64,000 bases of DNA, from NCBI RefSeq assembly GCF_053078305.1, contig NZ_CP166879.1. One strand, written 5' to 3'. A program made the translations under genes and the position numbers. Below are positions 10,919 to 12,914 of the stretch, piece by piece. Every line of letters starts with the position of its first letter. Positions within the stretch are counted from its first letter, which is position 1. The notes beneath the pieces were generated by a model that was given only the letters and a program-made list of their open reading frames with translations, was not told where the DNA came from and did no database searches.

Positions 10919-12121
10919 TCAGGCAGTCAGGCGGCTCGCGTCTTGCGCGATAACCAGTTCTTCGTTGGTTGGGATAACCACCGCAGGACGGGTACCTTCT
11001 TTGTTGATGAAACCAGATTTGCCGAAACGTGCAGCCAGGTTGCGTTCATGATCAACTTCAAAGCCCAGCACGCCCAGTTTGCCCAGAGACAGTTCACGAA
11101 CCATCGCGGCATTTTCACCGATACCACCGGTGAATACAACAGCGTCCAGACGACCATCCATCAGCGCAGTGTAGGCACCGATGTATTTCGCCAGGCGGTG
11201 GCAGTAAACGTCCATTGCGCGCTTCGCGTCTTCTTTCGTCGCGTAGTTGTCTTCAACATAGCGGCAGTCGCTGGTCACTTCGGTCAGACCCAGCAGGCCA
11301 GACTCTTTGGTCAGCAGTTTGTTGATTGCGTCAACGCTCATGCCCAGGGTGTCGTGCAGGTGGAAGATGATCGCCGGATCGATATCACCAGAACGGGTAC
11401 CCATGACCAGACCTTCCAGCGGGGTCAGGCCCATAGAGGTGTCAACGCATTTACCGTTGCGGATAGCAGAAACGGAACCACCGTTGCCCAGGTGGCAGGT
11501 GATGATGTTCAGTTCTTCTACCGGTTTGTTCAGCATTTTTGCCGCTTCCTGGGTTACATAGAAGTGGCTGGTGCCGTGCGCGCCGTAACGACGGATGCCG
11601 TGCTCTTTGTACAGGTTGTACGGCAGGGCGTAGAGGTAAGACTCTTCCGGCATAGTCTGGTGGAACGCGGTGTCAAATACAGCAACGTTTTTGTCTTTCA
11701 GCTGTGGGAAAGATTTCAGAGCTTCTTCGATACCGATCAGGTGAGCCGGGTTGTGCAGCGGTGCAAAAGAAGCTGCATCTTTGATACCCTGAATAACAGA
11801 CTCATCGATCACTACGGAGCTGGTATACTTTTCGCCGCCGTGTACGATACGGTGACCGATAGCAGTCAGCTGCGCAGACAGTTCTGGTTTTTGTGCCAGA
11901 ATAGTATTAACGATAAAGTTGAGCGCTTCGCTGTGAGCGGCGCCTGCACCTAAAGCCGCTTCCTGTTTATTGCCGTCCATTTTCCATTTGATACGTGCTT
12001 CGGGCAGGTGGAAACATTCGGCTAAACCAGAAAGGTACTCTTCACCATTTACTGCATCGATGATGGCAAATTTCAGTGAAGAACTACCGCAGTTCAGAAC
12101 CAGTACTAACTTACTCGACAT
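10919..12121 (-). CDS. ackA: Acetate kinase
   Basis: 400 aa; N-terminal [13 protein letters not shown] acetate/propionate kinase signature. Confidence 0.97.
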
Positions 12122-12440
12122 GGAAGTACCTATAATTGATACGTGGCTAAAAAAACGTCAGGGAGCCATAGAGCGTAGCGCATGATGACACCGACATTTA
12201 TGATTAACATCATGCACTGCAAATTTTTTTTGCATGATGGAAGAAATATCTTGAGTCTATGCCATTTTGCGTAATTTTCAGCCAATGGCATAATGTATAT
12301 GAATTTGACGACTCAATGAATATGTACTACTTAGGCCTTCAGGCTGCTAAAGGATACCTGATAGTGGGTATGGAAGACAAAATGTTTTGAACGTTGTCCC
12401 GCTGAGTTGTGAATTTGCACAAATTTTTGAATCTTTATAT

Positions 12441-12456
12441 GTGAAGTTGAGGTGAA
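12441..12456 (-). promoter_or_regulatory. Exact TTCAC-N6-TTCAC direct repeat (CreB 'cre-tag'-like) in ackA/yfbV divergent control region
   Basis: Plus strand reads GTGAAgttgagGTGAA; reverse complement is TTCACctcaacTTCAC; ackA-pta is a reported CreBC regulon member. Confidence 0.35.
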
Positions 12457-12458
12457 GC

Positions 12459-12914
12459 ATGTCAACGCCGGATAATCGTTCTGTTAATTTTTTTAGCTTG
12501 TTTCGCCGGGGACAGCATTACTCAAAGACGTGGCCGCTGGAAAAACGCCTTGCCCCGGTCTTTGTCGAAAATCGCGTTATCAAGATGACGCGTTATGCGA
12601 TCCGTTTTATGCCGCCGATCGCCGTATTTACTCTCTGCTGGCAGATTGCCCTGGGCGGTCAGCTTGGGCCGGCAGTTGCCACTGCCCTGTTCGCCTTAAG
12701 TTTACCCATGCAGGGATTGTGGTGGCTGGGCAAGCGTTCTGTCACGCCATTACCCCCTGCAATCCTCAACTGGTTTTATGAAGTTCGCGGTAAATTGCAG
12801 GAGTCTGGACAGGTGTTGGCACCCGTTGAAGGCAAGCCTGATTACCAGGCATTAGCTGACACGCTTAAGCGCGCCTTCAAACAACTGGATAAAACTTTCC
12901 TTGATGATTTGTAA
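12459..12914 (+). CDS. yfbV: UPF0208 inner membrane protein YfbV
   Basis: 151 aa with two hydrophobic segments; divergent from ackA. Confidence 0.85.

Follow-up and report, generated by a model that had tools for sequence, protein, structure and literature searches.

The 9-bp inverted repeat in the divergent control region of ackA and yfbV probably reflects two sigma-70 promoters that occupy a common ~55 bp and fire in opposite directions, a reading to which we assign a probability of roughly 60%. All positions refer to the window, that is, the whole stretch of 64,000 nucleotides that was analysed. The promoter towards yfbV (P+, plus strand) would consist of TTGCGT (12267-72), a 16-bp spacer and TGgCATAAT (12286-94), with a start at 12300-12302 and a ~158-nt leader, and the promoter towards ackA (P-, minus strand) of CTGAAA (12281 to 12276), a 16-bp spacer and TAGACT (12259 to 12254), with a start at ~12247 and a ~126-nt leader. 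Each -35 would sit within the spacer of the other promoter, the right arm of the repeat would be the extended -10 of P+, and the left arm would contain the first two bases of the P- -10 and the DNA immediately upstream of it. The two starts would lie at nearly equal distances on either side of the dyad centre at 12275 (+25 to +27 and -26 to -28), and the palindromy itself would be incidental, a by-product of the promoter layout. RNA polymerase could occupy the region in only one orientation at a time, and the two promoters should therefore compete. Both components were in the literature before, as a mapped start for yfbV and a predicted promoter for ackA; what is new is that together they explain the repeat.

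The window is E. coli DNA: a 381-bp query over the region matched 5424 of 5426 complete genomes with ≥99% identity, invariably between ackA and yfbV. The divergent spacer between the two genes is 337 bp long (12122-12458). The repeat finder and a reading of the sequence both gave two arms of 9 nt each, complementary at 9/9 positions (100%) and separated by a 17-nt spacer; the repeat is 137-171 nt from the ackA ATG and 167-201 nt from the yfbV ATG, upstream of both. The earlier note had described a perfect 9-bp inverted repeat with a 17-nt spacer within 12255-12300, in the divergent ackA/yfbV control region, and both the repeat and its placement proved correct. The features of the locus are as follows.

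10919-12121, minus strand: ackA
12459-12914, plus strand: yfbV
12258-12266: left arm of the inverted repeat, TATGCCATT (repeat finder)
12284-12292: right arm of the inverted repeat, AATGGCATA (repeat finder)
12267-12272, plus strand: -35 of P+, TTGCGT, inside the inverted-repeat spacer
12286-12294, plus strand: extended -10 of P+, TGgCATAAT, formed by the right arm and 2 further nt
12300-12302, plus strand: yfbV-direction start (published 5' ends, reporter inserts, PWM)
12276-12281, minus strand: -35 of P-, CTGAAA, inside the inverted-repeat spacer
12254-12259, minus strand: -10 of P-, TAGACT, two bases in the left arm and four in its flank
12247-12249, minus strand: ackA-sense RNA 5' end, the probable P- start (RIL-seq boundaries, PWM)

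The frequency of such repeats by chance was estimated with dinucleotide-preserving shuffles. At least one perfect 9-nt inverted repeat (0-30 nt spacer) was found in 4.2% of 5000 shuffles of the 337-bp spacer, and the whole 64-kb window had 44 perfect 9-nt inverted repeats (21 distinct loci), compared with 9.4 +/- 3.8 in its shuffles. The pattern ATGCCAT-N19-ATGGCAT occurred without mismatch only once in the window, at the dyad reviewed here. The repeat is mildly unusual locally, one among many in the window, and unremarkable by statistics alone. It is bracketed by an outer 7-bp inverted repeat (TTGAGTC/GACTCAA, 12251-12257/12310-12316) that lengthens the stem in E. coli MFE folds and whose right half (12310-12316) is not kept in other genera.

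The E. coli genomes were too alike to be informative, so conservation was profiled across species. The locus was fetched via YfbV from 80 species (GTDB set), and 74 spacers were extracted and aligned; per-base conservation is the major-allele fraction over 60 haplotypes, and dyad and promoter counts are over 63 distinct sequences. Two of the loci retrieved (L021 and L049, with 94% and 90% identity) carried an Enterobacteriaceae-type yfbV on a 455-bp contig labelled as Microbispora bryophytorum and on a contig labelled as Chryseobacterium sp. 18061, most likely indicating contamination or mislabelling of these assemblies.

The block 12254-12294 was kept over ~70 Enterobacteriaceae species, including Escherichia, Salmonella, Citrobacter, Klebsiella, Enterobacter, Kluyvera, Kosakonia and others, and the stretches next to it (12295-12301 and 12312-12340) had diverged across those species. 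The earlier note had named an absence of conservation among relatives as grounds for giving up its proposal; this was looked for here, and the block proved conserved. From 12258 to 12266 the per-base conservation of the left arm was.97,.98,.68,.95,.70,.87,.95, 1.0 and.98, and from 12284 to 12292 that of the right arm was.92,.78,.95, 1.0,.95, 1.0, 1.0,.65 and.97, the least conserved arm positions being 12260, 12262, 12285 and 12291 (65-78%). Mirror positions of the arms were unequally conserved (for example,.98 vs.65,.68 vs 1.0 and.70 vs.95), and the TTG (12267-69) and TTTCAG (12276-81) of the inverted-repeat spacer were 88-100% conserved, on par with the arms. Conservation covers the block as a whole, including its spacer, and not a dyad. 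The right arm was retained without the left arm in three lineages (L022, L039 and L068). The block was absent from Cedecea, Pantoea, Erwinia, Biostraticola, Enterobacillus and one further genome, all of which have the divergent ackA/yfbV arrangement; an FNR-type site and the proximal and distal ackA -10 elements persist in these distant relatives.

The elements of P+ varied as expected for a promoter. The TTG of its -35, TTGCGT (a 3/6 match to consensus), was present in 60/60 haplotypes, with variation in the three bases after it, which is the usual -35 pattern. In the extended -10, G12287, C12289 and A12290 were invariant and T12294 was present in 59/60 haplotypes, with variation restricted to hexamer positions 3 and 5 (CATAAT/CAGAAT/CATACT); A2 and T6 of the hexamer were present in 62/63 sequences. 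The TG (T12286 and G12287), one base upstream of CATAAT at 12289-94, was retained in 59/63 sequences, position -16 was A or G only, and the -35 to -10 distance was 16 bp in 63/63.

Published K-12 coordinates (g) were converted to window positions as 2,423,613 - g (U00096.2), and the map was verified with the ackA gene of Kim 2012 (2411492-2412694) and their 51-nt upstream strings, all of which match the window. The PWM placed the P+ start at 12301, and its scan of the spacer put P+ in 2nd place. Inserts in pXG-10 start at the TSS as standard practice. The yfbV reporters of Miyakoshi 2019 begin at the base homologous to 12301 in Salmonella (by alignment) and at 12302 in E. coli, and the dRNA-seq data of Romero 2014 include a TAP-enriched, class II end with no leading edge, RVS_(II)-2411313 (U00096.2), which corresponds to 12300. 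The TG, the -10/-35 spacing and a published 5' end 6-8 nt downstream were all present, as expected of a sigma-70 extended -10 promoter. The start at 12300-12302 was absent from the TSS table of Kim 2012, in which the main yfbV start is at 12341.

Two further observations concern the yfbV side. The octamer at 12302-12309 (AATTTGAC) was almost invariant over the 60 haplotypes. It includes the TTGAC of TTGACG (12305-12310), a -35-like hexamer that precedes TACTTA by 17 bp, and this pair would serve the main yfbV start of Kim 2012 (2411272, 12341; 69 reads), for which the -10 region was not conserved; the octamer also forms the first bases of a transcript starting at 12300-12302. A second extended -10, TGcGATAAT, lies 10 bp downstream of TGgCA(T/G)AAT (aligned to 12296-12304) in most genera except Escherichia, Salmonella and Citrobacter (for example, in L032 and L054), and is degenerate in E. 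coli (TATATGAAT). From these alignments, the yfbV start may differ among genera.

The elements of P- were derived from the conservation pattern, independently of the RpoD gSELEX table of Shimada 2014, in which the same hexamers (CTGAAA-16-TAGACT) are given as the ackA-side constitutive promoter; that call is a sequence prediction within a low-resolution gSELEX peak. The -35, TTTCAG on the plus strand, was 88-100% conserved, and the -10 followed TAnAnT, with positions 1, 2, 4 and 6 at 97-100% and positions 3 and 5 free (TAGACT/TAAAAT/TAGAAT); the hexamer was TAAAAT or TAGAAT in most genera. A2 and T6 were found in 60/63 sequences and the 16-bp spacer in 62/63. CTGAAA-16-TAGACT matches the consensus at 4/6 and 4/6 positions and has the hexamers and spacing of a sigma-70 promoter.

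The mirrored extended -10 on the minus strand, TGgCATAGA, was considered as the ackA-direction -10 and rejected: its -11 base is variable (T41/A14/C5, plus strand) and its -7 base is never T. TAGACT is the better fit. The PWM placed the P- start at 12247, and P- ranked 7th in the spacer scan. RIL-seq 'yfbV.ackA.IGR' fragments begin at 2411366 in stationary phase (12247) and at 2411364 under iron limitation (12249), so that boundaries matching the expected P- start appear in two of three conditions. We infer that transcription truly initiates at this 5' end of the ackA-sense RNA; the RIL-seq boundary could instead be a processing or trimming end, and the start was absent from the TSS tables of Kim 2012 and Romero 2014.

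Across species, conservation tracked the two promoters, in that their 16-bp spacers were fixed while the dyad decayed (perfect in 26/63 distinct sequences, ≤6/9 in 21/63). In Kosakonia only 6/9 dyad pairs remained, yet TTGCGC-16-TGgCATAAT and CTGAAA-16-TAAAAT were both intact. The PWM-predicted starts at 12301, 12247 and 12344 agreed with mapped 5' ends. For RNA polymerase at the region, the record consists of an RpoD gSELEX peak of low resolution within the spacer. A simple consensus scan called neither P+ nor P-, and the PWM promoter scores were not above those of the shuffled AT-rich spacer (rank-1 shuffle mean 11.3). Shuffled sequence scores as high, so the support for the promoters is positional agreement and conservation, not score. 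The repeat had been presented as unexplained by the coding annotation, which holds for the gene annotation and does not hold for the published TSS and promoter literature.

We compared the layout with known promoter arrangements. The Beck & Warren classification of divergent promoters in E. coli control regions is said to include an 'overlapping' class. P+ and P- resemble overlapping divergent sigma-70 pairs in using opposite strands of one polymerase-sized stretch, with starts 53-54 bp apart and interdigitated -35 elements; they differ in that competition is inferred here and the ackA start rests on a published prediction and RIL-seq boundaries. Warman et al. 2021 reportedly described bidirectional promoters that arise from -10 symmetry, with overlapping -10 hexamers on opposite strands and starts ~18 bp apart. 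Divergent transcription, and palindromy as a by-product of promoter sequence, would be common to both cases, whereas at ackA/yfbV ~30 bp separate the two -10 elements, both -35 elements fall in that gap, the distance from start to start is ~53 bp, and the symmetric TGGCATA would serve as an extended -10 for just one of the two directions. P+ is also like extended -10 (TGnTATAAT) promoters, having TGgCATAAT with a TG conserved at 95-100% and a weak -35, TTGCGT, typical of that class, although its mirror image on the opposite strand, TGgCATAGA, does not serve as an extended -10.

Some conserved bases are required by neither promoter model (G12261, A12264, C12283, G12288 and the invariant non-consensus C12289), and on this pattern another factor besides RNA polymerase may read the block. 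One alternative is an operator, with a dimeric or higher-order factor of the Escherichia-Klebsiella-Enterobacter clade binding TATGCCAT...ATGGCATA and repressing or switching the overlapping promoters. We regard it as unlikely. The E. coli dyad is perfect (9/9) and locally uncommon, it overlies two core promoters in the classical position of a repressor, both arms are conserved above the spacer background, and the conserved arm bases G12261, A12264, G12288 and C12289 lie outside the promoter models; the intergenic spacer is also protein-dense by FNR ChIP-chip and RpoD/RpoN gSELEX. The geometry of the dyad nevertheless argues against this alternative, since the half-site centres (12262 and 12288) are 26 bp apart, or ~2.5 turns, and face opposite sides of the helix rather than the same side. 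Opposite-face half-sites are atypical for dimeric helix-turn-helix regulators. The conservation pattern points in the same direction: the arms lack mirror symmetry in their conservation, the inverted-repeat spacer is kept just as well as they are, the dyad falls to ≤6/9 in 21/63 sequences with no compensating changes, and one arm can vanish alone. A search confined to a library of papers found none that prints the dyad sequence or reports a factor there, and the reported FNR sites lie elsewhere, at ~12203-12228. A more specific version, in which a candidate regulator of core Enterobacteriaceae at the dyad chooses between firing towards ackA and towards yfbV, is less probable still; if true, such a symmetric switch would couple carbon overflow (ackA) to chromosome organisation (yfbV, the Ter-macrodomain insulation protein). 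The 'candidate operator' of the earlier note thus finds no positive support, given the asymmetric conservation, the 26-bp half-site distance and the decay of the dyad.

The FNR/CRP-type site aTGATtaacATCAt (12200-12213), 60 bp away, provides a comparison. Like the reviewed dyad, it has perfect dyad symmetry and lies over core promoter elements. In contrast to FNR/CRP-type operators, the reviewed half-site centres are 26 bp apart and not ~10-11 or ~21 bp, the inverted-repeat spacer is conserved like the arms, conservation is asymmetric, and there is no known binding protein; the FNR-type site is conserved order-wide and the reviewed dyad is not. The palindrome aTGATtaacATCAt is centred ~42 bp upstream of the ackA start at 12164, which is class II activator geometry, and the site is kept together with a TACGCT -10 even in Pantoea, Erwinia and Biostraticola. 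This start is the class I ackA start of Romero 2014 (2411449, minus strand, -10 TACGCT), and Myers 2013 instead assigned the FNR site to -74.5 relative to another reference TSS.

Other known motifs were compared by eye with consensus sequences. The PurR half-site ACGCAAAA, ArcA direct repeats, the OxyR/LysR T-N11-A pattern, and the marbox, NagC/Mlc and CytR motifs gave no convincing or conserved match. A sigma-54 promoter, suggested by the TGGCA motif and by a peak of RpoN gSELEX within the spacer (~12181), was rejected: TGGCATAATGTATATG and TGGCATAGACTCAAGA are without GC at -12, and TGGCTGAAAATTACGCA has GG-N11-GC, not the required GG-N10-GC. On the minus strand just upstream of the yfbV ATG, TTCACctcaacTTCAC (12441-12456) faces ackA and matches the CreB cre-tag direct repeat, TTCACnnnnnnTTCAC; the second repeat of this match is not kept in Salmonella, Klebsiella and Enterobacter.

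It is rather improbable that the repeat has no function at all, being a chance palindrome in AT-rich DNA that seems conserved as the compared genomes are close. Such a repeat is contained in 4.2% of shuffled spacers, the 64-kb window offers many places for one, shuffles yield promoter-like PWM scores just as often, and core Enterobacteriaceae are the only group with the block. On the other hand, 12295-12301 and 12312-12340 diverged freely while 12254-12294 did not, the spacing is invariant, and mapped RNA 5' ends on both strands flank the block at the predicted distances. Small ORFs from the ATGs in the arms (12259, plus strand, 43 aa; 12291, minus strand, 53 aa) were rejected, as their start codons are not conserved.

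The least favoured alternative, which we hold to be very unlikely, is an RNA hairpin with a stem of 9 bp and a loop of 17 nt in the leader of ackA and/or yfbV that affects stability, processing or translation. Transcripts from both strands cover the repeat. The leaders concerned are a 223-nt ackA leader from 12344 and a 661-nt yfbV leader from 11798: the distal ackA start (2411269, 12344) was reported by Kim 2012 and Romero 2014 (class I), the ackA reporter constructs for Salmonella and E. coli both begin at 12344, with the repeat at +53 to +87, and a yfbV start inside ackA (2411815, 11798; 33 reads) was reported by Kim 2012. A p19-captured RNase III dsRNA cluster covers 2,411,203-2,411,785 (11828-12410). 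In E. coli the hairpin has a dG of -11 to -12.2 kcal/mol (z -2 to -3.5) on either strand and is present in the leader MFE fold, one compensatory C:G to T:A change was found, in two related species, and one-sided changes were more often G.U-compatible in the plus sense. Huaxiibacter combines C to T at 12262 with G to A at 12288.

The species comparison, in which pairs were counted against shuffles and slid registers and folding was also done per species, did not bear this out. Paired cells made up 89.6% vs 89.2% in column shuffles (66/500 as high), doubly changed pairs numbered 2 vs 1.2 (168/500), and the covariation score was 0.135 vs 0.125 (13/500). RNAalifold gave no consensus structure on either strand, the pairs 12259/12291 and 12260/12290 were broken in about a third of sequences, and 39-41 of the 63 sequences folded at ≤ -8 kcal/mol, with z ~ 0 in several genera. 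A search of Rfam 15 with an E-value threshold of 1 returned only a noise hit (snoR66, E = 0.65). The covariation tests have power, since the neighbouring hairpin at 12208-12239 passes them. The 'small hairpin' of the earlier note was likewise left without positive support, with pairing and covariation at background, an empty RNAalifold result and no Rfam match. An intrinsic terminator was rejected, with no terminator-like site in 12050-12520, a 17-nt loop and no T run on either strand.

This neighbour is a second perfect 9-bp inverted repeat, with arms CATCATGCA (12208-12216) and TGCATGATG (12231-12239), and in the ackA-sense leader it shows the behaviour of a conserved hairpin, which the reviewed repeat does not. 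The hairpin was foldable in nearly all of 69 distinct sequences, including those of Cedecea, Biostraticola, Enterobacillus and L085, with Pantoea and Erwinia as the exceptions. Its loop varies freely, its inner stem differs among lineages, and RNAalifold gave a 7-bp consensus helix in the ackA sense. Pairing was 97.0% vs 95.1% in shuffles (0/500) and doubly changed cells numbered 7 vs 1.1 (0/500). The hairpin overlaps the FNR-type site.

The ackA 'TSS' of Kim 2012 at 2411394 (5 reads; 12219, minus strand) falls in the loop of this hairpin with no good -10 upstream, and may be a processing site rather than a true start. A T8 run at 12224-12231 lies in the loop. Herron & Doebeli 2013 found an identical +T insertion in the yfbV/ackA spacer in two evolving populations, linked to a shorter acetate lag, and the T8 run is an obvious candidate slippage site for it. 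Transcription involves both strands throughout the spacer and ~290 nt at the start of ackA (11798-12410), and an antisense interplay of the ackA and yfbV mRNAs is likely for this reason. A 3'-end mapping preprint makes no mention of ackA or yfbV.

In general, the earlier interpretation stands as far as a regulatory and conserved element is concerned, and not as regards an operator or a functional hairpin. A palindromic operator fails two defining tests (half-sites on one helix face and mirror-symmetric conservation) and a structured RNA fails the covariation test; most likely the repeat is neither. Two opposed sigma-70 promoters, our preferred reading, would lie in a crowded spacer, which has an FNR-type site, a leader hairpin with covariation, antisense overlap and at least three 5' ends in each of the ackA and yfbV directions. 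The ackA-pta pathway governs acetate overflow and acetyl-phosphate levels, and the spacer is a recurrent target in evolution experiments. The crowded layout is useful for engineering this region or for reading mutations in it, and otherwise matters little beyond tidying the locus map. For AT-rich divergent control regions, back-to-back promoters can yield a perfect and conserved inverted repeat, and conservation of such a repeat is not by itself the mark of an operator.
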